This document shows, in pieces, positions 34,281 through 58,727 of a DNA stretch of 64,000 nucleotides. Source of the DNA: Candidatus Latescibacterota bacterium (GTDB lineage Bacteria; Latescibacterota; CBDCVA01); contig CBDCVA010000001.1 of assembly GCA_965222935.1 (NCBI GenBank), forward strand, positions 196,093 to 260,092, read 5' to 3'. How positions within the stretch are numbered: the first letter of the stretch is position 1; each line of letters starts with the position of its first letter. Both the position numbers and the translations under genes were made by a program. The notes below the pieces were generated by a model. It was not told the origin of the DNA. It saw nothing but the letters and a program-made list of their open reading frames with translations, and made no database searches.

Positions 34281-34357
34281 TGGTGGGCGATACCGGATTC
34301 GAACCAGTGACCTCCTGCTTGTAAGGCAGGCGCTCTCGCCATCTGAGCTAATCGCCC
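34281..34357 (-). tRNA. tRNA-Val (anticodon UAC), CCA encoded
   Basis: Hand-folded cloverleaf. Acceptor GGGCGAT/ATCGCCC, D-stem GCTC/GAGC, anticodon stem CCTGC/GCAGG with loop CUUACAA (U33, A37), T-stem ACTGG/CCGGT, T-loop TTCGAAT, discriminator A plus CCA. Confidence 0.85.
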
Positions 34358-38931: not shown

Positions 38932-40653
38932 ATGAGACAGTCCGACCTGCTTGTGCGGATCGGGGGCGAAGGCGGTGAAGGCGTCATCTCTTCGGGTGAG
39001 ATCCTCACCAAGGCGATGGCGCGGGCCGGCTGGAACGTGTTCACGTTTCGCACCTATCCCGCTGAGATTCGCGGGGGTGTGGCGATGTTTCAGTTGCGCG
39101 TGGCCTCGCAACCCATCTACTCGCAGGGCGGTAAAGCCGACCTGTTCATTGCCTTCAATGACGAGGCTCTGGAGCATTACCTTCCCGAACTGCGTCCCGG
39201 TGGTACGCTGTTGTTCGATCCTGAGCAGGCACACGCCCCTGAAGAGGGCGCCTACCACGTCCTTCCAGTGCCCCTCAACCGGCTGGCGCGCGAGGCCGGC
39301 AGTGTCCTGACCAAGAACATCGTCGCTGTCGGCGCGCTTTCCAAGGCGTTCGACGTGGACCCGGAGATCTTCCGTCAGCTCATCCGGGACCAGTGGCTGC
39401 GCAAGGGCGAGCGGGTCGTCGAGATGAACTACCGCGCGCTCGAAGTCGGTCGCCAGGCCGTCGTCGAGGCAGGGGGCGCCGAGGGAGTCGCTCTGGAAGC
39501 TGCCCCGCCCAACGGCGAGGAGCTCATGATCATCAGCGGCAACCAGGCGGTGGGCTTGGGCGCTATCGTTGCCGGCTGTCGCTTCTGCGCCGGATATCCC
39601 ATCACGCCTGCGACGCCGCTGTTTGAGTTTCTGATTGCAGAATTGCCGAAGTTCGGGGGAGGGACGTTCCAGGCCGAGGACGAGATGGCGGCACTGGGAG
39701 CGTGCCTGGGCGCCTCGTTCTCGGGCATCAAGGCGATGACTTGCACGTCGGGTCCTGGCATTTCACTGATGAGCGAACTCATCAACCACGCCTCGATGCT
39801 TGAGCTGCCCGTCGTCATCGTGGACGTCCAGCGCGCAGGACCCTCGACGGGCATGCCCACCAAGACTGAGCAGGGTGATCTGAAGTTCGCCATCTACGGC
39901 ACGACGGGGGAATCCCCCAGGATCGTGCTGGCTCCCACGTCGGTGGAGGACTGCATTTATCAGACGGTCCGCGCGTTCAACCTGAGCGAGCGTTATCAGA
40001 TGCCGGCCATCATCCTCAGCGACCAGGCGATGGCATATAGGACCCAGAACGTGAAGTTGCCCGACCTGTCTATGATCGATGTGGATGAGCGGATCCTGGC
40101 CGGCGATGGCGAGCTTAACGATTACAGGCGCTTCAGGCTTACCGAAACGGGCGTCTCGCCGATGACCGTTCCGGGGATGGAGGGCGGCGCCTATTTGGCG
40201 ACAGGTCTCGAGCACGACGAGACGGGCGCGCCCAAGTACACTCCTGAAGCTCACAAGACGATGACGGCCAAGCGGTTTCGAAAGCTGACTACACTCGCCG
40301 ACGAACTCGCCTCGGATCCCCAGCCGTACTACGGTTCAGATAAGGCTCGCATCGGCGTGATCGGCTGGGGCTCAACCGAAGGCGCGATCCGCGAGGCTCG
40401 ATACAGGGCGGAGGAGGCCGGCATTCCGATCAAGCACTTGCATCCGAGGGTGGTCTCTCCGCTGCCGGAGAAGCGCATCGCTGAGTTTCTCCGGGGACTA
40501 GAGACGATCATCATCCCCGAGGAGAACTTCACCGGGCAGTTCGCGCATTTCGTAAAGGCGAAGTTCGGGATCAGGCCCATAGAAGTTCACAAGGCGGAGG
40601 GGATCCCTCTCACACCCGAAGAAATCTTAGACGCGATTGAGGAGCATGCCTAA
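38932..40653 (+). CDS. 2-oxoacid:ferredoxin oxidoreductase subunit alpha with fused gamma domain (set 1)
   Basis: N-terminal gamma-type domain (GGEGGEGVISSGEIL); the alpha domain belongs to the pyruvate/2-oxoglutarate ferredoxin oxidoreductase family (KorA-like). Confidence 0.85.
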   Translation: MRQSDLLVRIGGEGGEGVISSGEILTKAMARAGWNVFTFRTYPAEIRGGVAMFQLRVASQPIYSQGGKADLFIAFNDEALEHYLPELRPGGTLLFDPEQAHAPEEGAYHVLPVPLNRLAREAGSVLTKNIVAVGALSKAFDVDPEIFRQLIRDQWLRKGERVVEMNYRALEVGRQAVVEAGGAEGVALEAAPPNGEELMIISGNQAVGLGAIVAGCRFCAGYPITPATPLFEFLIAELPKFGGGTFQAEDEMAALGACLGASFSGIKAMTCTSGPGISLMSELINHASMLELPVVIVDVQRAGPSTGMPTKTEQGDLKFAIYGTTGESPRIVLAPTSVEDCIYQTVRAFNLSERYQMPAIILSDQAMAYRTQNVKLPDLSMIDVDERILAGDGELNDYRRFRLTETGVSPMTVPGMEGGAYLATGLEHDETGAPKYTPEAHKTMTAKRFRKLTTLADELASDPQPYYGSDKARIGVIGWGSTEGAIREARYRAEEAGIPIKHLHPRVVSPLPEKRIAEFLRGLETIIIPEENFTGQFAHFVKAKFGIRPIEVHKAEGIPLTPEEILDAIEEHA

Positions 40654-40655
40654 CT

Positions 40656-41537
40656 ATGACCGCTCTCGTGGCAACACCGGCTCCGACCCGAAGTCCTGCC
40701 AGCTATAAAAGCGATCTCAAGCCCATCTGGTGCCGCGGTTGCGGCGATTTCGGGGCGCTCTCAGCCTTCTATAAGGCGCTCTCCACACAAAACGTCGATC
40801 CCAACGATCTCGTCTTCGTCAGCGGCATCGGCTGCTCCGGGCGTTTCCCCCACTTCGTTGAGACCTACAGCTTTCACTCGACCCACGGCAGAGCGCTTCC
40901 CGTGGCCACGGGGCTCAAGGTGGCGCGCCCGGAGCTTCCGGTGGCGGTGGTAGGCGGCGACGGCGACGGACTGGCCATCGGCATGGGGCACATCCCTCAC
41001 GCCGCACGGCGCAACGTTGACATCACTTACGTCCTTCTGGACAACGAGATCTATGGGCTGACCAAGGGACAAAGCTCGCCTACGACGCCCTTCGGCGCCC
41101 ATACCCCCGGGGGCATGGGGGCAACGAAGGATGGGCATTGGGAAGAGAGGCTGGACCCGTTGGCCATCTACATTGCCTCGGGGGCGACCTTCGTCGCCTG
41201 CGGCTTCACCGGCGTTCCAGCCCAACTGGCCGGCATCTTCTCGGCGGCGCTGGCCCACAAGGGCTTTTCCATCGTTCATACGTACAGCCCGTGCACGACC
41301 TTCAATCACTTTCTGACCTTCGACAGCATCAAGGAGCGCCTCGGCCAGATCCCCGAGGACCACGACCCCACCGACCGGCTGGCTGCGATGCGCTATGCCC
41401 TCGATCACGAACAGATCTGGACCGGCATATACTACCAGGTCGAGCGGCCGACGCTGGATGGCATTGTGGATGCCCAGCGGCGCGAGGTCGGGGATCGGCG
41501 GACCGCGCTCTTGGACCTCTTGAGGGGGTTTGAATAG
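40656..41537 (+). CDS. 2-oxoacid:ferredoxin oxidoreductase subunit beta, TPP-binding (set 1)
   Basis: CPGCGDFG motif and TPP-binding GDGD...N pattern (KorB-like). Confidence 0.85.
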   Translation: MTALVATPAPTRSPASYKSDLKPIWCRGCGDFGALSAFYKALSTQNVDPNDLVFVSGIGCSGRFPHFVETYSFHSTHGRALPVATGLKVARPELPVAVVGGDGDGLAIGMGHIPHAARRNVDITYVLLDNEIYGLTKGQSSPTTPFGAHTPGGMGATKDGHWEERLDPLAIYIASGATFVACGFTGVPAQLAGIFSAALAHKGFSIVHTYSPCTTFNHFLTFDSIKERLGQIPEDHDPTDRLAAMRYALDHEQIWTGIYYQVERPTLDGIVDAQRREVGDRRTALLDLLRGFE

Positions 41538-41645
41538 CCGAAGGAGCCGGGTGCGTGAGTTGTGCGGCATCGCGCCTGGCGGGTGCCTGGCATACGTAGT
41601 GGCGAATATACAAATCATGGCGAAACGATCCCGGAGTCGAGTCCT

Positions 41646-43409
41646 ATGCGAGAAGAACTAACGCTTGGAATTGGCGGCGCTGCAGGCGAAGGTATCGGAG
41701 CACCTGGCAATGCGGTAGGTCAGCTCTGCGCCCGCCTCGGGTTGCACGTGTACTCCTATAACGAGTACCAGTCCTTGGTCAAAGGCGGGCACATCTGGCT
41801 GCGCATTCGGATGTCCAAGACGAAGGTCGAAAACCATGGCGATCACCTCAACGTCGCGCTCGCCTTCAATCAAGACACCCTCAATCGGCATGCTCAAGAG
41901 GTAGAGCCGGGCGGGGCCGTCATCTTTAACGGGGGCAAGCTCAGCCTCGAGGGACTGCAACTTCAAGAGGACGTGACGCCTATCCCGCTCCCTATCACGG
42001 AGATTATGGAACCCTTTGGACGGCTACCGGCGATCATGCAGAACACGGTCATGATTGGCGCTGTCATGTGGGTCTTGGGCCTCGATTTCCCGGTCCTCAA
42101 GGAGTCCATCCGCGAAGAGTTCCTGGGACGCGGCAAGGGCGAGGAGGTGGCTAACACCAACGCCGATCTAGCTCAGGCGGGGTACGACTATGCCCGGTCT
42201 CAGTATCCGCACCTGGGCGATGACTGGGGGGAGTTCTCACGGGTGGGCAGGGCGGTCGTCACCGGCAATGAGATGTTCGGTTTCGGCGCCTTGGCCGCGG
42301 GATGCGCTTACTACACAGCTTATCCGATGACGCCAGCCTCGGGCATCCTTCATTTGCTGGCCAAGTACGGGCCGCGCCACGGGATGGTAGTGAAGCAGAT
42401 GGAGGACGAGATCGCTGTGCTCAACTCGGCCATCGGTGCTGGCTTCGCGGGAGTGAGAGCGATGTGCGGCACCTCCGGCGGCGGGTTCGCCTTGATGACG
42501 GAGGCCGTGGGCATGGCGGGGATGACAGAGACGCCAGTCGTGATCGTGGAATGCCAGCGCGGCGGCCCGTCCACGGGGCTACCTACCAAGACCGAGCAGG
42601 GCGACCTCAATCAGGCCTACGGGGCCTCTCAGGGTGATTACCCCCGTGTGATCTTTGCTCCCACCGACGCGATCGACTGCTTCAATGCGATCCCCGAAGC
42701 CTTCAACCTGGCCGAGCGCTGGCAGATCCCCGTGATCGTGTTGTCGGACCTCTATCTCTCCGAGCATAATGAGACGATCGACCCCGAGGCCGTGAACTTC
42801 GCGGTCGAGATTGATCGCGGCGAGATTGTCAGAGAGCTTCCGCCCGAGAACGGCTATCTACGTTTCCGCCATACCGCCTCGGGTGTGTCGCCGCGCGTGT
42901 TGCCCGGGACCCTGGGTGGCGTCCATACCACGGCCACGGACGAGCACGATCAGCGCGGCGCCCTCATAAGCGATGAGTACACCAATCCGCCCGAGCGCAT
43001 CAAGATGATGGACAAGAGGATGCGGAAGATGGAGGGTATTTTACGCGAGGTGCCTCCGCCCGTCTTGGAGGGCCCTGCAGAGGCGGATGTCACGCTGATC
43101 GGGTGGGGATCCACAACGGGGCTGATTCGAGAGGCCATCGGGCAACTCGCGGAGACCGGCGTGACCGCGAACCATGTGCAGTTCCGCTACCTCGTTCCCT
43201 TCCATACCGACGAGGCCCGGGTGATTCTGGAGCGGGCACGCTTCACCATCATGGTGGAGGTGAATTACAGCGGACAGTTCGAGCGTCATCTGCGCGCCGA
43301 GACGGGTTTGAGCGTGGACGCTCACGTGCGGAAGTACGATGGCGAGCCCATGGAACCGGCTTACCTAAAGGACCGAATACTGGAGGTGCTGAATGTCCCC
43401 GTCAGTTGA
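41646..43409 (+). CDS. 2-oxoacid:ferredoxin oxidoreductase subunit alpha with fused gamma domain (set 2)
   Basis: Paralogue of 38932-40653 (IGGAAGEGIGAPG... gamma domain, alpha domain); ATG at 41646. Confidence 0.85.
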   Translation: MREELTLGIGGAAGEGIGAPGNAVGQLCARLGLHVYSYNEYQSLVKGGHIWLRIRMSKTKVENHGDHLNVALAFNQDTLNRHAQEVEPGGAVIFNGGKLSLEGLQLQEDVTPIPLPITEIMEPFGRLPAIMQNTVMIGAVMWVLGLDFPVLKESIREEFLGRGKGEEVANTNADLAQAGYDYARSQYPHLGDDWGEFSRVGRAVVTGNEMFGFGALAAGCAYYTAYPMTPASGILHLLAKYGPRHGMVVKQMEDEIAVLNSAIGAGFAGVRAMCGTSGGGFALMTEAVGMAGMTETPVVIVECQRGGPSTGLPTKTEQGDLNQAYGASQGDYPRVIFAPTDAIDCFNAIPEAFNLAERWQIPVIVLSDLYLSEHNETIDPEAVNFAVEIDRGEIVRELPPENGYLRFRHTASGVSPRVLPGTLGGVHTTATDEHDQRGALISDEYTNPPERIKMMDKRMRKMEGILREVPPPVLEGPAEADVTLIGWGSTTGLIREAIGQLAETGVTANHVQFRYLVPFHTDEARVILERARFTIMVEVNYSGQFERHLRAETGLSVDAHVRKYDGEPMEPAYLKDRILEVLNVPVS

Positions 43410-44274
43410 AATCCTGCCTGTCAAGGATTATAAAGGACTGGTAGACCCCGACTGGTGCCCCGGCTGCGGCGACTTCGGGGTACTCCGGGCGCTGCAAACG
43501 GCCGCCAGCCAGTTGGCGATCCACCCTCATCGGCTCGTGGCCGTCTCCGGCATAGGCTGCTCTTCGAATCTGCCCGGGTTCATTCACGCGTACGGTTTTC
43601 ACAGCCTGCACGGTCGTGCGCTCCCCGTAGCAACGGGCATCAAGCTGGCCAACCCCGATCTCAACGTCGTTGTGGCCACGGGTGACGGGGATGGCTACGG
43701 GATCGGCGCGGGTCACTTCGTCCACATCCTGCGGCGGAACGTGGACATGACCATGATCGTGATGAACAACCAGATCTATGGGCTCACCACCGGCCAGGTG
43801 TCGCCCACGAGCGAGAAGGGAATGAAGAGCAAGTCCACCTTGGGCGGCACGTTGGAGGAAGCGTTCAATCCGCTGGCTCTTGCGCTTGCGGGCGGCGCCA
43901 CTTTCGTTTCCCGCTGCTTCTCGGGTGATGCCAAGCACATGGCCCAGGTGCTCAAGCGCGCTATCAGCCACAGGGGCTTTAGTCTGGTGGACGTGTTCAG
44001 TCCCTGCGTCACCTACAACAAGATCAACACTTACGCGTGGTTCAAGGAGCGCGTCTACAAGCTCGAAGAGGCCGACCACGATACCAGCGCCTTTCAAACA
44101 GCGATGCTCAAGGCCATGGAGTGGGGGCATGAGATCCCGCTCGGGGTCTTCTACGAGCGCGAAGCGCCCACCTACGAGGATGAGGAACCAGCCCTGGCGG
44201 ACGGTCCGCTGCCTGAACGCGAACTGGGCATGACCCAGGAGCAGGGCATGGCGGTGCTCAAGGACTTCATGTAG
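43393..44274 (+). CDS. 2-oxoacid:ferredoxin oxidoreductase subunit beta, TPP-binding (set 2)
   Basis: CPGCGDFG plus TPP motif; overlaps the preceding alpha gene. Confidence 0.85.
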   Translation: MSPSVEILPVKDYKGLVDPDWCPGCGDFGVLRALQTAASQLAIHPHRLVAVSGIGCSSNLPGFIHAYGFHSLHGRALPVATGIKLANPDLNVVVATGDGDGYGIGAGHFVHILRRNVDMTMIVMNNQIYGLTTGQVSPTSEKGMKSKSTLGGTLEEAFNPLALALAGGATFVSRCFSGDAKHMAQVLKRAISHRGFSLVDVFSPCVTYNKINTYAWFKERVYKLEEADHDTSAFQTAMLKAMEWGHEIPLGVFYEREAPTYEDEEPALADGPLPERELGMTQEQGMAVLKDFM

Positions 44275-44377: not shown

Positions 44378-45061
44378 ATGCTGACCATTCGTTTTCTGGG
44401 CCACGCGGCTTTCACCTTCTCCGACGGCTCCCACGAGGTGCTGGTTGACCCGTTCCTCACCGACAACCCGGTGGCGGCGGCTAAGCCCGACGACCTCTCG
44501 CCGGACGCGATCCTGCTGACGCACGGCCACAACGATCACCTCGGTGACGCCGTCCCGATCGCCAAGCGGGCGAATGCCACCATCGTCGCGCCCTTTGAAC
44601 TGGCTGTTTTCTGCGAGCGCCAGGGCTGCGTTACCCACCCCATGCACATCGGCGGCGCGCACGCGTTCGATTTCGGTCGCGTCAAGTTCGTGCCGGCATG
44701 GCACGGCTCCGCCTTCATCGGCGACGACATCGTCTACACGGGCAACCCCACCGGGATCATTCTGACGATGGGCGGCATCTCCGTCTATCATGCCGGCGAC
44801 ACGGGGCTCTTCGGGGATATGCGTCTGATCGGCGAACGGGAGACGCCGGATGTCGCGCTGCTGCCCATCGGCGACAACTTCACGATGGGCGTCGAGGACG
44901 CCGAACAGGCGGCGCGATGGGTGGGAGCGAGGCGCGTCATTCCTATGCATTACAATACATTTGACCTGATTAGTGCAGACCCGCAGGACCTCGCAAGGCG
45001 CCTGGAGGGCAGCGGGATCGAGGTTCTCCCCCTAGCACCGGGTGAATCGCTTCAGGTGTGA
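44378..45061 (+). CDS. UPF0173-type metal-dependent hydrolase (MBL fold)
   Basis: LTHGHNDH motif and UPF0173 family architecture; preceded by a G9 homopolymer. Confidence 0.7.
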   Translation: MLTIRFLGHAAFTFSDGSHEVLVDPFLTDNPVAAAKPDDLSPDAILLTHGHNDHLGDAVPIAKRANATIVAPFELAVFCERQGCVTHPMHIGGAHAFDFGRVKFVPAWHGSAFIGDDIVYTGNPTGIILTMGGISVYHAGDTGLFGDMRLIGERETPDVALLPIGDNFTMGVEDAEQAARWVGARRVIPMHYNTFDLISADPQDLARRLEGSGIEVLPLAPGESLQV

Positions 45062-45555
45062 GACGACTGCGCCTGACACCCGACCAGAAGCGCATCTTAT
45101 GCTTTCTACCACCGACGGGTGAGACGGAAGAGATCAACGATCTGATCGGCGAGATTGCCGAGCTTCCTCGCTCGCTTCTAGGCCAGTGGTTCGATGAGCG
45201 CCTGCTCGATCCCGAGCAACGGCGGGCGCACCATCAGGCGGAACGCTGTGTCCGCCGCGTCATCCGCCAGCTCTTCGAGCGAGGCCTCGTGGACGTGGGC
45301 AACGACGCGACTTACGGCGAAGGCGTTCGCCGGTTCCACAGGCGCATGTGGGAGGCTCAGCAGGACCCCGGCTACTGGAAGCAGAAAGAGGCGACCCCGT
45401 CCGCGGAGCAGCTTGAGCGCTCCATGGCGCTTCACCAGGAGCTAATGGAGACGCGAAAGTTCAACGTTGCCAGGGAGGCGCTGCGAGGTGACGTGCGGAC
45501 CGTGGGCTTGACTGCGGTGGGCTGTCAGTGGCGCGCCGCACAGGCAGCGGGTTAG
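45058..45555 (+). CDS. Hypothetical protein
   Basis: 165 aa; GTG start overlapping the hydrolase stop (GTGA); no recognisable domain. Confidence 0.4.
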   Translation: MRRLRLTPDQKRILCFLPPTGETEEINDLIGEIAELPRSLLGQWFDERLLDPEQRRAHHQAERCVRRVIRQLFERGLVDVGNDATYGEGVRRFHRRMWEAQQDPGYWKQKEATPSAEQLERSMALHQELMETRKFNVAREALRGDVRTVGLTAVGCQWRAAQAAG

Positions 45556-45570
45556 CGCCATCCGAAGCCT

Positions 45571-45630
45571 GATGAGAAGTACATCCTGAGCCCGTCGAGG
45601 GATGAGCGCCTCTTAGTTGCCGGGATCAAG
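45571..45630 (+). repeat. 60-bp direct repeat copy A (~87% identical to 52093-52152)
   Basis: gatgagaagtacatcctgagcccgtcgagggatgagcgcctcttagttgccgggatcaag versus gatgagacgtacatcctgggcccgtcgaaggataagtgcctcctagtcgccgagatcgg. Confidence 0.6.
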
Positions 45631-45635
45631 TCTGC

Positions 45636-45725
45636 GGTTCCCTCACCCGCGCGGGGATAACGCCATTACTGGGATTGGTGCCCCAATCAGCCACCCGGTT
45701 TCCCCGCCGGCGAGGGAAGCCGTGG
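45636..45725 (+). CRISPR. Degenerate type I-E-like CRISPR mini-array (2 repeats of 29 nt flanking one 32-nt spacer)
   Basis: R1 GGTTCCCTCACCCGCGCGGGGATAACGCC (45636-45664); spacer attactgggattggtgccccaatcagccaccc (32 nt); R2 GGTTTCCCCGCCGGCGAGGGAAGCCGTGG (45697-45725). The 61-nt period and palindromic CCCCGC..GCGGGG core match the E. coli-type I-E repeat family. Confidence 0.5.
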
Positions 45726-45773
45726 CGCTCAGAAACCACCATTGATTCCATGCCAAAGAGGGAAACCTGAAGG

Positions 45774-46826
45774 ATGATGAACCGACGCAGCTTTCTGAAG
45801 AAGGCAGGGGCGGCTAGCGCCGTGGGCGCGGCTGCGATTGCGGCCCCGGCGGTGCACGCGCAATCGAAGACAAAGATCAAGTGGCGCCTCCAGACCTATG
45901 CGGGGCCCGCCCTCGCCGAGCACGTCATCAAGCCGTCCATCGATTCGTTCAACAAGGTGGCGAACGGCGAGATGGAAGTCGGACTCTACTTCGCGGACCA
46001 GCTCGTGCCGACCGGCGAGCTTTTCCGGGCCATGCAGCAGGGCACCATCGACGCGGTGCAGTCGGACGACGACTCGATCGCAGCGCCGGTGGACATCTCC
46101 GTATTCGGCGGCTACTTCCCGTTCGCCACTCGGTACAGCCTCGACGTGCCAGCGCTCTTCCACCAATGGGGGCTGAACGAGATCTGGGCGGAAGCCTACG
46201 GTGAAATCGAAGGGGTCACGTGGCTCAGCGCCGGCGCCTGGGACCCGTGTCACTTCAATACCGTCAACCCCATTCGCAGCCTCGAGGGTCTCAAGGGCCT
46301 TCGCGTGTACACCTTCCCTACCGCCGGCCGCTTCCTGTCGCGCTTCGGGGTGGTGCCGGTGACTCTGCCCTGGGAGGACATAGAAGTCGCGGTGCAGACC
46401 GGGGAGTTGGACGGCATGGCTTGGTCCGGTATCACCGAGGACTACACGGCAGGCTGGGCCGACCTCACCAACTACTTCCTCACCAACAGCATCTCGGGCG
46501 CGTGGTGCGGGTCGTACTTCGCCAACTCTGAGAAGTGGGACGCCGTGCCCGCTCACCTTCAGGAGTTGTTCCGGCTCTGCATGGACAGCTCGCACTACTA
46601 CCGCCAGTACTGGTACTGGGGCGGCGAGGCGAAGCTCCGCGTCGACGGCACCAAGCTGGAGCTGACCTCGATCCCAGACGAGGAGTGGGCGAAGGTGGAG
46701 GCCGAGGCGGTCACGTTCTGGGACGAGATCGCGGCCGAGACCCCGCGCACCGCCAAAGTGGTGGGCATCCTGCGGGCCTACAACGAGGCCATGAGCAAGG
46801 CCGGCCGGCCCTACCGGTATTCCTGA
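45774..46826 (+). CDS. TRAP transporter substrate-binding protein (DctP family), Tat signal; no adjacent DctQM genes
   Basis: RRSFLKKAGAASAVGAAA twin-arginine signal; DctP-family pattern. Confidence 0.8.
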   Translation: MMNRRSFLKKAGAASAVGAAAIAAPAVHAQSKTKIKWRLQTYAGPALAEHVIKPSIDSFNKVANGEMEVGLYFADQLVPTGELFRAMQQGTIDAVQSDDDSIAAPVDISVFGGYFPFATRYSLDVPALFHQWGLNEIWAEAYGEIEGVTWLSAGAWDPCHFNTVNPIRSLEGLKGLRVYTFPTAGRFLSRFGVVPVTLPWEDIEVAVQTGELDGMAWSGITEDYTAGWADLTNYFLTNSISGAWCGSYFANSEKWDAVPAHLQELFRLCMDSSHYYRQYWYWGGEAKLRVDGTKLELTSIPDEEWAKVEAEAVTFWDEIAAETPRTAKVVGILRAYNEAMSKAGRPYRYS

Positions 46827-46897
46827 TAGGCCTGAACGGACGAAGCGCAAGCAACAGACCCACGCGCCCGCGGCGAGCCGATGCAGCGGATTATGGA

Positions 46898-47400
46898 ATG
46901 AGGCGCAGCGGTCGTCCCCTCGTTTTCGCCGTTCCGACGCGTACCGCCACCAGGCAGCTTCATGGTCGCGTCAATGAGGCGCTACGCCGGGTGCTCGGTG
47001 CGGATACGCCTGAAGCCGTGCTGGCCATTCCCGGGATGCTGCGCGCGAAGGAGTTAGGGGGCCAACGTCTGTCCCATTGGCGCGTAAAGTGGGACGACGA
47101 TGCAACATTGGTCCCGCAACGATGGGCCGCCGAGCACGCGACGCGATTTCTGGCGGTACCTGTTGGCGTCGGTACTGTGGATCAGACGATGCTTGCCGGA
47201 CTTGGGTGAAATATGCGCCTTTGCGGAGCAGCGCGCTCAATCACAGTCTTCTGGTGATCGACGAGGTTCATGTTTCCGACGCCTACATGGCCGAGATTCT
47301 GGCGCGACTCCTGGATGGGCACCTCGCCACCGGAGGATACGCGATGCTGATGTCTGCGACACTGGATTCGCGACCGGGGGATGCGCCGACGCCCGCTGAA
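46898..47400 (+). pseudogene. cas3: Internal fragment of a Cas3-like SF2 helicase (motifs Ia-II-III only), frameshifted near 47205; lacks the HD domain, Walker A and C-terminal domains
   Basis: Frame 1 (46898-47209) reads ...LVFAVPTRTATRQLHGRV...GTVDQTMLAGLG*; the +1 frame (47209-) reads KYAPLRSSALNHSLLVIDEVHVSDAYMAEILARLLDG...AMLMSATLD. DEVH followed by (A/V)xDAYM fits my recollection of the type I-E Cas3 motif II; SAT is motif III. Truncated at both ends by neighbouring genes. Confidence 0.45.
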
Positions 47401-47414
47401 ACACCGGCCATGCC

Positions 47415-48464
47415 TCACCCAGCAGCGTCCGGAGGCCGGTTCCCCGAGAATACGCTGATTATGCGGTCGACCGAGACCGCGCCGACCGCCGCCCCCGTTA
47501 CGTCCACCACCCGGACCTCCTTGCCCGGCGCTGATGTTGCCAGCGGTAAGGCGTCCTCCAGAGAGGTGCCGACCGGGCAATCCGGCCCGTCGAGTTCGGG
47601 CTTGACGGGCGCCATGATCGAATCGACGCGGATGACACGGCCCCGGTTGATGTTCTTGATGAACGCGGAGATGTAGGCATCGGCCGGCCGCAGGACGATG
47701 TCTTGGGAGTCGCCGTTCTGCACGATCTCGCCGTCGCGCAGAATCGCGATTCGGTCGCCGAGTTCGATTGCCTCTTCGAGATCGTGGGTGACGAACACTA
47801 TGGTCTTGTTCAGATCTCGTTGCAACTCCAGCAGCAACGCCTGCATGTCCGACCGGATCAGCGGATCGAGGGCGCTGAACGGTTCGTCCATCAACAGTAT
47901 CTCGGCGTCGGTCGCCAGCGCGCGGGCCAGTCCGACCCGCTGCTGCATGCCGCCCGAGAGGTGGTGGGGATAGGTTGCTTCGTAACCCGAAAGCTCGACC
48001 CGATCGATCCATTGCCCGGCGCGGCCGGCACGCTCGACGCCGGCGACGCCCTGCATTTCCAGACCGTAGCCGACGTTCTCCATCACGGTCCGGTGGGGCA
48101 GCAGCGCAAAACGCTGGAACACCATGCTGACCCGGTGCCGGCGGAGATGCTGGAGGGCGGCGCGGTCGAGTGCGAGCACGTCCTCGCCGCCGATCCGGAC
48201 CTCGCCCTCGGTCGGATCGATCAGACGGTTGACGTGGCGGATCAGCGTCGATTTGCCTGACCCGCTGAGACCCATGATCACCTGGACATGGCGCGGCGCG
48301 ATGCTCAGGTTGATGTCGCGCAGGCCCAGCACGTGGCCATGGGTTTCCAGCAAGTCCTTTTTGTCAACGCCCTCGTGGACGAGCGGCATCATGGCCGCGG
48401 GATCGGCGCCGAAGACCTTGTAAAGCCCGCGGATTTCGATTCTGTCGCCGGTCGTCATAGTCAT
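47415..48464 (-). CDS. proV: Glycine betaine/proline ABC transporter ATP-binding protein with C-terminal CBS pair (ProV/OpuAA)
   Basis: True start MTMTTGDRIEIRGLYKVFG at comp. 48464; Walker A GLSGSGKST, LSGGMQQRV signature, CBS domains. The 592-aa track ORF carries a ~240-aa artefactual N-terminal extension. Confidence 0.85.
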   Translation of the reverse strand: MTMTTGDRIEIRGLYKVFGADPAAMMPLVHEGVDKKDLLETHGHVLGLRDINLSIAPRHVQVIMGLSGSGKSTLIRHVNRLIDPTEGEVRIGGEDVLALDRAALQHLRRHRVSMVFQRFALLPHRTVMENVGYGLEMQGVAGVERAGRAGQWIDRVELSGYEATYPHHLSGGMQQRVGLARALATDAEILLMDEPFSALDPLIRSDMQALLLELQRDLNKTIVFVTHDLEEAIELGDRIAILRDGEIVQNGDSQDIVLRPADAYISAFIKNINRGRVIRVDSIMAPVKPELDGPDCPVGTSLEDALPLATSAPGKEVRVVDVTGAAVGAVSVDRIISVFSGNRPPDAAG

Positions 48465-49342
48465 GCTTGCCGCGCGGTCTGGATGCGCCGGCCGTAGCTC
48501 TGCGTGATCCTGTCGAACACGATCGCCAGCCCGACGACGGCAGCGCCGTTGAACAGGCCGAGCGCGAAATACTGGTTGGTGACCGCCTGGAGCACCGGTT
48601 GACCGAGGCCCTTGACGCCGATCATGGAGGCGATCACCACCATCGAGAGCGCCATCATGATGGTCTGGTTCACCCCGGCCATGATGTTGGGAAGCGCGAG
48701 CGGCAACTGGACGCCGAAGAGCCGCCGCCACGTGTCGGCGCCGAACGCGTCGGCGGCTTCCAGCACTTCCTTGTCGACCAGCCGGATGCCCAGATTGGTG
48801 AGCCGGATGACCGGCGGCACGGCATAGATCACCACTGCGATCAGCCCCGGTATCTTGCCGAGGCCGAACAGCATGACCACCGGGATTAGATAGACGAAGA
48901 TCGGCATCGTCTGCATGATGTCGAGGATCGGCGTCATGATCGCCTGCACCCGGTCCGAACGCGACATCGCGATCCCGAGCGGGATGCCGATCATGATGGC
49001 AAAGAGCGTGGAGACCAAGATGATGACGAGGGTCCGCATCATATTGTCCCACATGCCGAGAAAGCCAATCGCGAAGAAGGCGATGCCGACGCCGGCGGTC
49101 AGCCGCCTGCTCCGGCTGGCGAAGAAGCACAGCCCCGCGATGGAGGCGATAACCAGCCACCAGGGCGTACCGAGCAGAAACCGCTCGAACCACACCAGAG
49201 TGTAGAGCAGCGGATCGAAAAAGCTCTCGATGGTGTCGCCGTAGGACCTAGAGAAGGCGCGGTACGCCGCGTCGAACGACTTGTGGATAGCCCGCAACGA
49301 GCCTTGCTCGAGGGTCGGGAATTCCACAATCCATTCGATCAC
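48461..49342 (-). CDS. proW: Glycine betaine/proline ABC transporter permease (ProW/OpuAB)
   Basis: 293-aa polytopic permease with an EAA-like loop; stop overlaps the proV start. Confidence 0.85.
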   Translation of the reverse strand: MIEWIVEFPTLEQGSLRAIHKSFDAAYRAFSRSYGDTIESFFDPLLYTLVWFERFLLGTPWWLVIASIAGLCFFASRSRRLTAGVGIAFFAIGFLGMWDNMMRTLVIILVSTLFAIMIGIPLGIAMSRSDRVQAIMTPILDIMQTMPIFVYLIPVVMLFGLGKIPGLIAVVIYAVPPVIRLTNLGIRLVDKEVLEAADAFGADTWRRLFGVQLPLALPNIMAGVNQTIMMALSMVVIASMIGVKGLGQPVLQAVTNQYFALGLFNGAAVVGLAIVFDRITQSYGRRIQTARQA

Positions 49343-49451
49343 GATTCAGTCTCCCCGATAAATCTCGGCTTGCACGAATTCCACATACCCCGCCGCTGGC
49401 GCCCGCGAAGGGGCCGAGGCTGGATGGGTCCGCGCCGGCCGTCGGACGGGC

Positions 49452-50444
49452 TTAGAGACCCGCTTTCACCTTCGCAGTGACATCCGCGGGCACCCAGGCG
49501 CTCCAGACCGCCTCGTGGTTTTTGAGAAAGTACTCGGCGGTCTCCCGAGGAGTCGCCTGATTCTCGTCTTTCCAAGCCAGCAGGCCCTTCAGGAACGCGT
49601 TCGACCAGGAGACGTTAGAGACGAACTCGTACGCGTCGGGCACCCGGTTCGCGAAGCTGGACGTGACTACCGACATCACCATCGATTTCGGATACATGTT
49701 CGGCTTCGGGTCGGCGCAATCCTTGTCTACGACGCACGGCCAAGTCGCGGGATCGTACGTCATCCCACCAAGCTTGACCATCGGGTACTTGCTGAGCAGG
49801 GTCGTCGGCGCCCAATAGTAGGCGAAGATCGACTGCTTGCGCTCATAGGCATGGGCAATCGCGCCCGCCAGCCCCTCGCCGGACCCGGGGTCGAACAGGG
49901 TGAACCCGGCCTCTTTCATGCGGTAGGCCTTGTAAAGGTTGCCGTTGATGATCTGGCAGGCCCAGCCCGACGGGCAGTCATAGAACCGGCCCATGCCCGG
50001 CTCCTCCTTGTCGGGAAACAGGTCGGGCCGCTCGAGGACCGCCTGCAGGGTGGTCAACTCCGGGTTGTCCTTCACCACATAGTCCGGAACCCACCAGCCC
50101 TCTTCGCCGCCATCCGACAGGATCTCGCCGGCAATCTTGAGACGGCCTTCGGCGACCGCCTTCTCGACGACCTCGCGCACCGAATTGATCCAGATCTCGG
50201 GCGCGATATCGGGCTCGTTCTTTTCCGTCATGGAGGTGACCGTCGGCACGGTATCACCGGGCACGAGCTCCGATTCGCAACCGTAACCCTTGGCCAGGAT
50301 GATATCCTCGACGTGGGCCGCGACCGCGGCTGAGGCCCAAGTCATCTCGGCAATCGTCACCTTGCCGCAGGCCACATCGGCACCCCATGCAAGGCCAGGA
50401 GCCATCAAAGCCGCCACGAGTAGTAATCCTGATCTCTTCACCAT
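49452..50444 (-). CDS. proX: Glycine betaine ABC transporter substrate-binding protein (ProX/OpuAC)
   Basis: Start MVKRSGLLLVAALMAPGLAWGAD (signal peptide) at comp. 50444; ProX-family pattern. The 60 N-terminal residues of the track ORF are a TTG-initiated artefact. Confidence 0.8.
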   Translation of the reverse strand: MVKRSGLLLVAALMAPGLAWGADVACGKVTIAEMTWASAAVAAHVEDIILAKGYGCESELVPGDTVPTVTSMTEKNEPDIAPEIWINSVREVVEKAVAEGRLKIAGEILSDGGEEGWWVPDYVVKDNPELTTLQAVLERPDLFPDKEEPGMGRFYDCPSGWACQIINGNLYKAYRMKEAGFTLFDPGSGEGLAGAIAHAYERKQSIFAYYWAPTTLLSKYPMVKLGGMTYDPATWPCVVDKDCADPKPNMYPKSMVMSVVTSSFANRVPDAYEFVSNVSWSNAFLKGLLAWKDENQATPRETAEYFLKNHEAVWSAWVPADVTAKVKAGL

Positions 50445-50518
50445 CGAACTTACCTCCCTTGGTTTAAGACACCGCTGCGTGGATCCACCGGCACGGCGAA
50501 CCCCGTTCCTCTCCCATC

Positions 50519-50541
50519 TATAATATACCGCAATATACCGC
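50519..50541 (-). promoter_or_regulatory. Candidate promoter/operator upstream of proXWV: TATAAT-like box plus tandem ATATACCGC x2 (10-bp period)
   Basis: ctataatATACCGCaatATACCGCgag sits 75-100 nt upstream of the proX start; the tandem repeat is seen in sequence. Confidence 0.3.
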
Positions 50542-50578
50542 GAGCCTCCCAATGGCAATCCTGGGTTCGCGCCCTGTC

Positions 50579-50607
50579 GGTTCCCCCGCCCGCGCGGGGA
50601 TAGCCCC
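50579..50607 (+). repeat. Solitary type I-E-like CRISPR repeat (GGTTCCCCCGCCCGCGCGGGGATAGCCCC)
   Basis: Best-preserved copy of the repeat family at 45636 and 52057, with the same palindromic core. No neighbouring repeat at a 61-nt period. Confidence 0.5.
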
Positions 50608-50650
50608 AGGATGGGTGTCCACAAGGGACGCCCCTACAGGACAGGAGATG

Positions 50651-51475
50651 CTACGGCTTGCGTCCTATCGCCTCTCCCCAGGCGAGGGCGGCGAATGCAC
50701 CGGGGGTATCCTTCCACTGATCGAGCATACGGCGCCAGTCATCGAACTGCTCTTGACTTGCCAGCCCGTGTTTCGTGGCCGCTTCCACGGTATCGGGAGA
50801 GAAGAACCAGCCGATGACGAAACCGTGAAGAAAGTCGATGTCCCCGGTCGTGCTGTAGGATTCAAATGAAGTGCTCGCGTGGATGTCCGAGAACCCGGCT
50901 TCGAGAAACGTACGCTTCAGTTCCTTCCCCATCTGGGGGTGGCCCCCGTTGGCCTCGAGAAGGTTCGAGAACGTCGTCCACGCACCGCGGAGATCGTCGA
51001 GTTCGGGTTCGAAAAACGACGAGGCGCTAATCAGTTCCCGGCTGGAGAGGATACCCCCGGGCTTCAACACCCGCTTCACCTCGGCCAGGGCAGCCTGCGT
51101 GTCCGGAACGTGCATGAGCAGGGCGTGGCAGTGGGCGACATCGAACGAGCCGTCTTCATAGGGAAGATCGGTCACATCGCCTGTCTGGAATACCGCGTTG
51201 TCGTGCCCGCCGGCCGACGCGGCGGCCCGGGCCATCTCGATCTGCGACGCTTCCATCTCGATGCCGTGCAACTCTCCGGGTTCCACCGCTTTTGCGAGCC
51301 CCACCGAAATCGTTCCGGGACCGCAACCGAAGTCGAGAACGCGGAGACCGGGCTCGAGGTACGGGAGCAGATGCGCGGCATTGGTCGTTGCGCTCCGGCG
51401 GCTGAGCAGTTTCTGAAACTCGTCACTGTAACCCATGGTGTAGGTGGGCGTATCCGGGGTCCTGTTGTCAGTCAT
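50651..51475 (-). CDS. Class I SAM-dependent methyltransferase
   Basis: Motif I VLDFGCGPGTIS and post-I/II motifs; 274 aa. Confidence 0.75.
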   Translation of the reverse strand: MTDNRTPDTPTYTMGYSDEFQKLLSRRSATTNAAHLLPYLEPGLRVLDFGCGPGTISVGLAKAVEPGELHGIEMEASQIEMARAAASAGGHDNAVFQTGDVTDLPYEDGSFDVAHCHALLMHVPDTQAALAEVKRVLKPGGILSSRELISASSFFEPELDDLRGAWTTFSNLLEANGGHPQMGKELKRTFLEAGFSDIHASTSFESYSTTGDIDFLHGFVIGWFFSPDTVEAATKHGLASQEQFDDWRRMLDQWKDTPGAFAALAWGEAIGRKP

Positions 51476-51502
51476 GGGTCGCTCCTTATGCGTGCTGCCG
51501 GC

Positions 51503-51703
51503 TCATGATCGTCGGGGCGCCCGCACCTCGACGATGCCGCACGCCTGCGTACCCTGCTCACGGAAGGCGCGGTTCACGCGCACCGGTGTCAGCGCGATCC
51601 GGCCGTTCTCTGCGGTGACGTCGAAATACTCGGTTCTCTTCACGGCCGGGATCAACGCCTTCGGCAGGGTCAACGGGTTCTTGGAGGTCGGTTTGGGGAG
51701 CAT
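51503..51703 (-). CDS. Small SpoVT/AbrB-like (VapB/MazE-type antitoxin-like) DNA-binding protein, orphan
   Basis: 66 aa; MLPKPTSKNPLTLPKALIPAV...GRIALTPV fits the swapped-hairpin K.TSKGQ.T.PK... pattern. The rest of the 233-aa track ORF is noise. Confidence 0.35.
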   Translation of the reverse strand: MLPKPTSKNPLTLPKALIPAVKRTEYFDVTAENGRIALTPVRVNRAFREQGTQACGIVEVRAPRRS

Positions 51704-52056
51704 GGCAAGCGCTCCGATTGAGAATATAAGCGAACCATAGGTCCTTACAAATTCCACGACAGGAATGGCGTCGATAGCCGCCTCCGCGTACGAGCGCCGC
51801 GCCGTGGGCGCTCGTACTGCGGCACTGCGTCGGGCCGCTTCTTGGCGCCCTCGCCAATGATCGCCTGACGACATCGTCCTCTCCGATGCGAGCTCGACGG
51901 CATACGATGGCTGTCGGTCGGTTTGCTCGGCGGAGTTCATATCCTTCTGACCGTCCGAGGCGCCCTGTCGGCGATGTGTGCTTCCTCGGCGAACTGGGCA
52001 TAAGGCGACTGGTTCGGGTTGATGGAGATCAGGCGCAGTCGGTGCGGGCCTGTCAT

Positions 52057-52085
52057 GGTTTCCCCGCCCGCACGGAGATAGACCC
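52057..52085 (+). repeat. Degenerate type I-E-like CRISPR repeat (GGTTTCCCCGCCCGCACGGAGATAGACCC)
   Basis: 24/29 identical to the repeat at 50579; directly followed by copy B of the 60-bp direct repeat. Confidence 0.4.
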
Positions 52086-52092
52086 TGACCGT

Positions 52093-52152
52093 GATGAGAC
52101 GTACATCCTGGGCCCGTCGAAGGATAAGTGCCTCCTAGTCGCCGAGATCGGA
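52093..52152 (+). repeat. 60-bp direct repeat copy B
   Basis: See copy A at 45571-45630. Confidence 0.6.
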
Positions 52153-52227: not shown

Positions 52228-52815
52228 ATGGGCTGCTTCGGCAGGTGGTGGGTTACGCTGGTTACCTCCATTGGGGTTTTGGCGATGGCGTGTGCATCTG
52301 AGCGTGAGCGGGCCGAGATCGGTGACGCCGGTGAGGTGGCAATCCTTGAGACGTCGGCGGGGCGGATCGTCTTGCAGTTCCACGAGGAAGATGCCCCGCG
52401 CCACGTCGGAAACTTCAAGAAGCTCGCCCGGTCGGGTTTTTATGACGGCACGTACTTTCACAGGGTTATCCCGGGTTTTATGGTCCAGGGGGGCGACCCC
52501 AACACTAAGGATGACGACCGTACAAACGATGGGCAGGGCGGCCCCGGATACGCGATTGAGGCGGAGTTCAACGCCCGCAAGCATGTGCGTGGCACCCTTT
52601 CGATGGCGCGCTCGCGCGGCATTCACACGGCCGGATCACAGTTCTTCATCTGCGTGGCGAATGCGCCCCATCTCGACGGTCAGTACACGGCGTTCGGGCA
52701 CGTGCAGGAGGGCATGGAGACCGTGGACGAGATCGTCAGCGTGCCGCGCGACCGTCGGGATAATCCTCTGGAGCCGATTTACCTAGAGCGGGTCACCGTT
52801 ACGAGCTCGCCTTAA
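52228..52815 (+). CDS. Peptidyl-prolyl cis-trans isomerase, cyclophilin type (secreted/lipoprotein)
   Basis: Start at MGCFGRWWVTLVTSIGVLAMACAS (signal/lipobox-like); cyclophilin motifs (FHRVIPGFMVQGGD, SMAR, GSQFFI). The upstream 114 codons of the track ORF overlap the repeat region and are not coding. Confidence 0.8.
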   Translation: MGCFGRWWVTLVTSIGVLAMACASERERAEIGDAGEVAILETSAGRIVLQFHEEDAPRHVGNFKKLARSGFYDGTYFHRVIPGFMVQGGDPNTKDDDRTNDGQGGPGYAIEAEFNARKHVRGTLSMARSRGIHTAGSQFFICVANAPHLDGQYTAFGHVQEGMETVDEIVSVPRDRRDNPLEPIYLERVTVTSSP

Positions 52816-58044: not shown

Positions 58045-58727
58045 ACGCGTCGTAAGACGCCGTCCTGAGTCCGTCGAAGGCCGCTGCCCTCGATTGATCC
58101 TCGCCTCGAGCTCTCCCAGGCGCTCGGCTCTCCTCGCTCAGTTGGGCTTAGTCTTCGATGTGATCTCTCCCTCGGTCGTTGAACCCGATCTGAGGGGCGC
58201 GGATCCCGTGGAGTTGGCGCGCGCGAGCGCGTGTGAAGCTGGCCTCGGTAGCGCCGCTTGCAGGGGAGGGGCTGCTTGTCAGCGCTGACACCATCGTGGT
58301 CCTTGGGGATGACGTGCTGGGCAAGCCAGACGGACCCGAGGACGCACGCGTCATGCTGCGCCGGCTTGCGGGAGGGACACACGACGTGCTGACCGCCGTC
58401 GCGGTCTGTGACACGGTTCGCGCGCGTGGTTTGCGTGGTTTGGTGGAGGTCGAGCGGACCCGCGTCACCTTACGTGCGATGAACGATGTGGAGATCGCCT
58501 GGTATGTCAACACCGGCGAGCCGATGGACAAAGCGGGGGCGTACGCGGCCCAGGGCCTCGGCGCGCTCTTCATCACCGAGTTTCAAGGCTGCTTTTACAA
58601 TGTGGTCGGGCTACCCCTCGTACGGCTGGCTTCGATGACCGCCAGGCTCGGTCAGCCCCTTCTGAGTTTCTGCCCTCCGGGCTATAGGGTTCGTGAACCC
58701 TCCGGTTCCTCGCTTGATTCGAGTTGA
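58031..58727 (+). pseudogene. maf: Maf-like nucleoside triphosphate pyrophosphatase with apparent frameshift near 58265
   Basis: N-terminal half in one frame (LILASSSPRRSALLAQLGL...ELARASACEAGLGSAA), C-terminal half in the +1 frame (PLAGEGLLVSADTIVVLGDD...GEPMDKAGAYAAQGLGALFI...VVGLPL). Either a real disruption or a sequencing indel. Confidence 0.55.

Follow-up and report, generated by a model that had tools for sequence, protein, structure and literature searches.

How does a bacterial chromosome come to carry single repeats, one spacer, and a shard of a helicase gene from a CRISPR-Cas system, scattered among unrelated genes and bracketed by a pair of direct repeats? The question is raised by a segment of about 6.6 kb in the window that we analyzed, that is, 64 kb of contig CBDCVA010000001.1 of a Candidatus Latescibacterota bacterium, to which an earlier note made from the sequence alone had drawn attention. 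We consider it probable that a type I-E CRISPR-Cas locus once stood at this chromosomal site and has left this inert remnant, its former borders being marked by two direct repeats of 58 nucleotides (nt), here called the 58-mers, with both of them going back to one event.

Four repeat-like sequences, R1 to R4 (coordinates in the table below), stand out clearly from their surroundings. Local alignment of the whole window, on both strands, to the repeat consensus gave scores of 19, 17, 27, and 23 for R1, R2, R3, and R4, respectively, with a background of at most 13. A repeat search returned R1, R3, and R4 as a three-member family of about 30 nt, to which R2 can be aligned but with a degenerate 3' half. 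All four have the form of I-E repeats, which is 29 nt with the arrangement GTTCCCCGC-N4-GCGGGGAT-N6, and are oriented as the cas genes are. They also agree at 24 to 26 of 29 to 30 positions with the repeat GTTTCCCCCGCACGGGCGGGGATAGACCC, present more than 20 times in an array at locus L209, directly after cas2 and in the same orientation. This is the nearest intact I-E locus that we found, and its array adjoins a full cas3-cse1-cse2-cas7-cas5-cas6e-cas1-cas2 operon; complete I-E operons (Cas3_HD, Cse2, Cas7e [CT1975], Cas5e, Cas6e, Cas1, and Cas2) are present in both L208 and L209. Hence, the mini-array, the solitary repeat, and the degenerate repeat beside the right-hand border that the earlier note had proposed are all upheld, and its 29-mers, for which it had suggested a test against CRISPR repeat families, belong with an array repeat that lies next to a complete operon. 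The near-identity expected of array repeats has been lost, as the pairwise identity among R1 to R4 is 20 to 25 of 29 positions and a single spacer separates adjacent repeats.

The second kind of relic is a fragment of cas3. Translation of positions 46898 to 47400 in two frames yields the helicase motifs PTRTAT, VGTVDQ, LLVIDEVH, and MLMSATL. In tblastn searches, the Cas3 protein of L209 matched positions 46919 to 47203 with 67% identity over 95 amino acids (aa) and positions 47206 to 47373 with 79% identity over 56 aa. Since these matches fall in two frames, a 1-nt deletion must have shifted the frame at about position 47204 to 47205. When rejoined into a sequence of 184 aa, the fragment corresponds to positions 334 to 481 of the 878 positions of the NCBIfam Cas3 model PRK09694 (E = 2e-18) and also matches TIGR01587, cas3_core (E = 1.7e-14), so that the cas3-like helicase suspected from the sequence is indeed Cas3 and not another helicase. 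A full-length Cas3 with an HD nuclease and a superfamily 2 (SF2) helicase is not what remains here; there are 151 codons, and they are frameshifted. An ATG at position 46898 opens a 103-aa open reading frame (ORF) that gene callers name Cas3, and a protein search returned a 94%-identical ORF of 103 aa, named Cas3 by the Joint Genome Institute (JGI), plus 35 more matches of 40 to 82% identity. All of these matches are short (99 to 277 aa), and the cas3 genes of L208, L209, and L215, which are European Nucleotide Archive (ENA) contigs, were likewise called as several short ORFs of 98 to 344 aa. Because two of these three are long-read contigs of twofold coverage, we read the short matches as the product of assembly frameshifts. 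We had also considered a family of mini-Cas3 proteins and rejected it, given that such likely frameshifts explain the short matches. Debris of this kind can evidently mislead the annotation of CRISPRs and cas genes, as the JGI name of the 103-aa ORF illustrates.

When every ORF of two I-E loci served as a tblastn query, none of the other cas genes (Cascade genes cse1, cse2, cas7e, cas5e, and cas6e, as well as cas1-cas2) was detected in the 64 kb, and no Pfam family of integrases, relaxases, or transposases was assigned to any called gene between 38.8 and 73.7 kb. Both results agree with what had been read from the segment before. In other words, we are dealing with genuine I-E debris, since the repeats match the L209 array beside its full operon and the fragment matches Cas3, and the repeats and the fragment together support the view that a CRISPR-Cas locus once stood here. 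The order of cas3 followed downstream by R3 and then R4 corresponds to the canonical I-E architecture. CRISPR function at this site is impossible because Cas6e, Cascade, and an intact repeat pair are all missing and cas3 is frameshifted. The relics persist in intergenic DNA only, where they drift neutrally.

Loss and decay of CRISPR-Cas systems are well known, and strains of E. coli and Shigella that have lost their cas-E genes are among the examples. The present locus adds one more, from an uncultured lineage whose nearest relatives among those we found show about 60 to 68% protein identity. It is a clean and dated-looking case of extreme erosion, in which single repeats and a shard of cas3 persist in intergenic DNA. 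Isolated CRISPRs and cas pseudogenes have been surveyed (PMC5294841), and like such orphan or degenerate I-E remnants, the locus has I-E repeats without effectors, a truncated and frameshifted cas3, and no spacer turnover between strains. It differs from them in being unusually far decayed, down to four diverged repeats and one spacer, and in that its relics are interleaved with three unrelated gene blocks instead of forming one orphan array.

The remnant is fixed in the population as sampled. The lineage is poorly sampled; the locus is covered by contigs of the same species that come from seven samples. The order of genes and relics is the same in L204, L207, L210, L211, and L212 (98.4 to 100% identity), and no strain without the segment or with an intact I-E system was found among the sampled same-species contigs, which are all 98.4 to 100% identical. 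Wherever they are covered, the 58-mers, R3, R4, and the cas3 frameshift show no strain differences. Specifically, the left 58-mer is identical in L204 and L210, R3 is identical in L210 and L211, and the frameshift is common to L207 and L210, so that it is seen in three independent assemblies in all. GC content is flat across the segment (0.61 to 0.66), which together with the identical order in the sampled strains argues against a recent foreign cassette. A few single-nucleotide polymorphisms (SNPs) between strains occur in R1, R2, and the cas3 fragment. They are most concentrated at positions 45636 to 45762, which comprise the mini-array and the 37 nt that follow it; here 8 of 127 nt differ, about 14 times the 0.47% seen over 6.7 kb on the left side, and four of the SNPs lie in an 11-nt stretch of the R1 stem. 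Such a concentration fits unconstrained DNA.

This last observation bears on the possibility that the mini-array and the solitary repeats have been retained as regulators resembling CRISPR RNAs (CreA-like or SRU-like), which would act with an I-E Cascade encoded elsewhere and might tune, for instance, the adjacent solute-binding protein gene or proX. Mini-arrays whose distal repeat is degenerate have been described for about 19% of I-E loci and are capable of gene regulation (10.1101/2023.03.03.530964), each of the relics lies in a promoter-proximal intergenic region, and R3 is well preserved, all of which would suit a regulatory role. However, the window contains neither Cascade genes nor cas6e, the hairpins of R1 and R2 are disrupted, and SNPs between strains are denser in the mini-array than in any other stretch. 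Moreover, the 64-kb window contains no match to the spacer that reaches 10 nt and exceeds chance expectation, not even a partial target, and no protospacer was found in phage records (one match at E = 0.9) or as an exact match in IMG/VR. A self-target of the kind used by CreTA was among the candidates tried and was not found, and the left junction as a whole was unmatched in plasmids. Like the published regulatory mini-arrays and standalone repeats (10.1101/2023.03.03.530964) and CreTA (PMC8501985), the locus has a lone spacer enclosed by two repeat-like sequences, of which the distal one is degenerate, as well as solitary repeats, but here no effector lies nearby, no partially complementary target was detected, and strain divergence is raised rather than reduced. 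A regulatory function of the relics is therefore highly improbable in our view.

The pair of 58-mers had been reported as 60-bp repeats of about 87% identity; its existence is confirmed, while the repeats measure 58 nt, are shifted by 1 nt, and are identical at 50 of 58 positions (86%; eight substitutions). Pairwise alignment shows that the similarity stops at these 58-nt limits. Apart from the CRISPR repeats, the 58-mer is the strongest repeat of the 64-kb window. A 25-nt pattern of its core matched exactly two sites, namely, these two, with 0 expected from 100 shuffles, and no third full 58-mer with its flanks was found in 73.7 kb. The left copy is separated from R1 by just 8 nt and the right copy from R4 by 6 nt, and as R1 and R4 are the outermost CRISPR repeats, we take the 58-mers to mark the borders of the old locus. 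Given so few copies, it seems very unlikely that this double adjacency arose by chance. The divergence of the pair (8 of 58) equals that between R1 and R3 and between R3 and R4 (4 of 29 each), each of these being 86% identity, which agrees with a duplication dating from about the time at which homogenization of the repeats was lost.

Several other readings of the 58-mers were tried and rejected. They are not a conserved I-E leader, as they are dissimilar both to the 80-nt leader of L209 and to the stretch before R3, and a model with a shared leader also meets the problem that no repeat follows the right 58-mer, where a putative fifth repeat scored at the background mean. A candidate repeat before the left copy ("R0," positions 45530 to 45558) gave p values of 0.013 to 0.26 depending on the reference repeat; this is not significant after five comparisons and stands as an unproven hint. 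Likewise, a structured RNA or ribozyme, considered on account of the start of the left copy (CUGAUGAG), found no Rfam match at the gathering threshold in the window, hairpin-rich loci gave no relevant match, and the fold z-scores were +0.6 to +1.1.

The core of the 58-mer (22 to 28 nt) proved to be a dispersed hairpin of the repetitive extragenic palindrome (REP) type, with a conserved 13-nt loop (TGAGCYYGTCGAA) and a covarying stem; in the left copy, it reads CATCCT-GAGCCCGTCGA-GGGATG. The core sequence CATCCTGNGCCCGTCGANGGAT occurs in at least 120 metagenome contigs and in three viral (IMG/VR) contigs, compared with roughly one chance match expected for 20 specified bases by a rough guess of the size of the metagenome collection. 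Nearly all of the matched contigs, whose base composition is very varied, carry the same 22-mer, CATCCTGAGCCCGTCGAAGGAT, between complementary bases. The loop TGAGCNNGTCGAA is found 232 times in the 752 kb that we fetched, including 107 instances outside the 22-mer used for searching, and did not occur in 1.42 Mb of loci from unrelated genomes. At each of the first three positions beside the loop, the bases on its two sides pair in 91 to 98% of instances, with exchanges of CG for GC and of TA for CG, and the hairpins are depleted in long ORFs (52%, with a background of 92%). They occur singly, as inverted doublets about 80 nt apart, and in tandem arrays with a period of 60 to 63 nt. The suggestion that the border repeat might be a common dispersed REP-like element thus applies to its core, which is common, and not to the full 58-mer with its flanks, which was found at just two sites in 73.7 kb.

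An alternative is that the bracket is historically meaningless. The 58-mers would then be two independent insertions of a mobile unit of the REP or MITE type with a preference for hairpin targets, or ordinary extragenic DNA at the array ends. The core is indeed dispersed and extragenic in each of the arrangements just named, and the source genome has more generic copies, at position 58065 and at about 72 kb, which bring the number of family members seen in 73.7 kb to only four. These other local copies, however, differ from the 58-mers in their stems and flanks. Outside the core, the flanks of the pair agree at 30 of 36 positions, whereas the best of 127 copies elsewhere agrees at 17 of 36 (mean, 10.4), so that none of the 127 shares the flanks of the 58-mer. 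Furthermore, no CRISPR array was found near the hairpin at 123 other loci, and two landings within 6 to 8 nt of the outermost repeats, on opposite sides, would be an improbable coincidence. Taken together, these points make independent insertions quite unlikely.

A pair of direct repeats exactly at both borders also invites comparison with genomic islands bounded by att sites, which resemble this locus in having imperfect direct repeats of tens of nt at both borders and a variable-looking segment lodged between housekeeping genes. In such a model, a circular element (58-mer, array A, cas genes, and array B) would have integrated by site-specific or Campbell-type recombination at a hairpin copy between the genes for a 165-aa protein and a cyclophilin; the 58-mers would be attL and attR, and the recombinase would have been lost later. 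A single event of this kind would account for the left copy adjoining R1 and the right copy adjoining R4, and dispersed hairpins would offer ready homology. On the other hand, the families expected of a recombination machinery are missing between 38.8 and 73.7 kb, as noted above, the border lacks a tRNA or tmRNA target (the only tRNA gene, at positions 34281 to 34357, is 11 kb away), there is no compositional signal, the segment is present in every sampled strain, with no presence/absence polymorphism, and the longest run of identical bases between the two copies is now only about 10 nt. We regard a degenerate island as conceivable but doubtful, and the 58-mers are not active att sites today. 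They may, as had been proposed, be recombination scars or att-like in origin, but no recombinase, tRNA target, or polymorphism that might accompany such sites was found.

Returning to an eroded chromosomal I-E locus as the most probable explanation, we can outline a possible history. The original layout on the plus strand may have comprised a short upstream array or mini-array (R1-spacer-R2), the genes from cas3 to cas2, a leader followed by a downstream array (R3 to R4), and a trailer. Successive deletions and insertions would then have taken away the HD domain of cas3 together with its C-terminal half, the Cascade genes, cas1-cas2, and nearly all spacers, and the gaps would have been filled by the native-looking genes that now occupy them, that is, the solute-binding protein gene, proVWX in the opposite direction, and the methyltransferase gene with a small ORF. 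The 58-mers most likely arose by one event that duplicated a REP-like site, either through recombination or integration of CRISPR-Cas-bearing DNA at that site or through a local duplication, at about the time when the repeats ceased to be kept identical. The pair may have arisen by integration or duplication at a REP-like site or, less probably, by independent insertions.

Some observations sit uneasily with this history. The left 58-mer occupies a leader position and the right one a trailer position, an asymmetry that has no functional rationale and calls for a rearrangement model. R3 is suspiciously well preserved (26 of 29 to 30 positions identical to the L209 repeat), and the argument for equal age is based on only eight and four substitutions. 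Outside the species, no relative is closer than about 60 to 68% protein identity, and no empty site or intact ancestor of the locus was seen. Finally, the data span 64 to 73.7 kb, and an intact I-E system or many more 58-mers might be located elsewhere in the genome.

A bolder version of the history is that a REP-like hairpin served as the landing or recombination site that brought a whole I-E CRISPR-Cas locus here, with the 58-mer pair as its footprint. This seems unlikely to us, yet if true it would make dispersed hairpin repeats a route of CRISPR-Cas mobility that needs no dedicated integrase. In any case, the presence of two REP-like repeats exactly at the borders of a former defense locus is a testable hint as to how such loci move or are deleted.

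The hairpin family is the most interesting by-product of this analysis and merits a survey of its own. It is not in Rfam, and searches of the literature by DNA and peptide strings yielded nothing relevant. Apparently, a hairpin core common to bacteria of different classes has not been described by sequence in the searchable literature. It is found in plasmid and chromid records of alpha- and betaproteobacteria (Comamonas, Novosphingobium, Methylobacterium, Microvirga, and Nitratireductor), with the Comamonas plasmid record carrying an inverted doublet in the intergenic gap between two electron-transfer flavoprotein genes. Like the REPs, bacterial interspersed mosaic elements (BIMEs), and REPINs, including the CGTC-tagged REPs (PMC3733652, PMC3116915), the 58-mer core is an extragenic palindrome of small size, dispersed in many copies that stand singly, in inverted doublets, or in clusters; its stems covary, and CGTC or TGTC lies in its center. 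The conserved center reads CCGTC in 132 cases, CTGTC in 51, and TTGTC in 36. The CGTC REPs have an unpaired CGTC or TGTC tag, a stem of 8 to 9 bp starting with AT, a loop of 4 to 5 nt, and a CCA tail (PMC3733652), whereas the hairpin described here, as we parse it, has a conserved 13-nt loop and a variable stem. It is also more broadly distributed than most named REP families, given the varied base composition of its contigs and its presence on alpha- and betaproteobacterial plasmids. It may be related to the CGTC-tagged REPs. Two of the tandem arrays (L143, positions 3295 to 3420, and L158, positions 38 to 125) mimic the spacing of CRISPRs and could yield false CRISPR calls.

Table. Elements of the locus, copies of the hairpin, and coverage by same-species contigs (window coordinates unless a contig is named)
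Feature	Position	Strand	Remarks
Left 58-nt direct repeat	45570-45627	+	Repeat search and alignment; ends 8 nt before R1
R1, decayed I-E repeat	45636-45664	+	Leader-proximal in mini-array; stem broken by 2 substitutions
Single spacer, 32 nt	45665-45696	+	Set by R1/R2 spacing; 32 nt is the canonical I-E length
R2, strongly degenerate repeat of terminal type	45697-45725	+	3' half diverged
Orphan tripartite ATP-independent periplasmic (TRAP) transporter solute-binding protein (DctP family), twin-arginine translocation (Tat) signal	45774-46826	+	PF03480, E = 1.2e-15; TIGR01409, 20.1 bits (cutoff, 16.7)
Internal cas3 pseudogene fragment	46919-47373	+	455 nt; helicase motifs Ia to III; 1-nt frameshift
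proV	47415-48464	-	ABC_tran; OpuA-type glycine-betaine importer
proW	48461-49342	-	BPD_transp_1
proX	49452-50444	-	OpuAC
R3, best-preserved repeat, solitary	50579-50607	+	135 nt upstream of proX start
Class I S-adenosylmethionine (SAM) methyltransferase	50651-51475	-	Pfam/NCBIfam
66-aa ORF of unknown fold	51506-51703	-	No Pfam match at E <= 10; AlphaFold predicted local distance difference test (pLDDT) score, 48
R4, degenerate I-E repeat	52057-52085	+	2 substitutions in 3' stem arm; ends 6 nt before right 58-mer
Right 58-nt direct repeat	52092-52149	+	REP-like hairpin core as in left copy; starts 6 nt after R4
Cyclophilin, 195 aa, lipoprotein type	52229-52815		Right flank gene, followed by rhomboid gene
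Hairpin copies	45582-45603, 52104-52125, 58065-58080; L216:19040; loci L081-L203; L214:2460-2530		
Contig L204	38820-45762		99.4% identity
Contig L207	46722-47941		98.4% identity
Contigs L205 and L206	From 52213		99% identity
Contig L210	41503-61710		99.6% identity, collinear
Contig L211	50093-61708		99.4% identity
Contig L212	51116-61703		100% identity

The genes that now separate the relics form at least three blocks, namely, the TRAP binding protein gene, proVWX, and the methyltransferase gene with the small ORF. The first of these is placed between the mini-array and the cas3 relic, the shard of cas3 in turn separates the TRAP gene from proV, and R3 stands between proX and the methyltransferase gene. 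Since R3 parts proXWV from the methyltransferase, the interspersed genes are not one cassette. The idea that a former CRISPR-Cas locus was overwritten by an osmoadaptation cassette is hence supported as regards the former locus and too simple as regards a single cassette, as the relics lie among at least three blocks and ProXWV alone is demonstrably related to osmoprotectants. The parts of the segment that work are its transporter and methyltransferase genes. Pfam and NCBIfam confirmed the Tat-TRAP binding protein, ProXWV, and the SAM methyltransferase that had been recognized from the sequence; the supposed AbrB-like gene, on the other hand, is the 66-aa ORF, and its lack of any Pfam match and its low-scoring model (see table) do not bear out that name. 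A sigma-70-like promoter at positions 51750 to 51723 precedes the block formed by this ORF and the methyltransferase gene. No exact-protein records were found for the TRAP binding protein, the methyltransferase, or the ORF at position 654.

Among solved structures, the OpuA ATPase is the best relative of ProV (E = 7e-87). ProV (349 aa, compared with 408 aa in OpuAA) has just one CBS motif, after which it stops at a distance of about 40 nt from where the cas3 fragment ends. Either a second CBS motif was lost in the rearrangement or the protein is naturally short. An AT-rich island lies at positions of about 50510 to 50545, where R3 and the start of proX face each other, with two copies of the direct repeat GGTATATT on the minus strand and a TATAAT on the plus strand. 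This stretch may be a remnant of the old CRISPR leader, the promoter or operator of proX, or both.

The segment is flanked by housekeeping genes, with pyruvate:ferredoxin oxidoreductase (PFOR) and metallo-beta-lactamase (MBL)-fold genes on the left and genes for cyclophilin, rhomboid, LptD, HU, Maf, and PriA on the right, where the right 58-mer lies 80 nt upstream of the cyclophilin gene. The next relatives of the cyclophilin are 54 to 68% identical, and the context of a distant homologue (L213) showed no synteny. A search for synteny in reference genomes by way of the MBL-fold neighbor gave matches of at most 60% identity, in unrelated phyla only. On the left, an ORF of 165 aa (positions 45058 to 45555) has no family match, and its last codons reach the DNA just before the left 58-mer; the sole database relative of its product comes from the same species, with 99% identity. 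Farther to the left, positions 38932 to 44274 contain a local duplication just beside the locus, in which the genes for the alpha and beta subunits of 2-oxoacid:ferredoxin oxidoreductase occur as two pairs in tandem.

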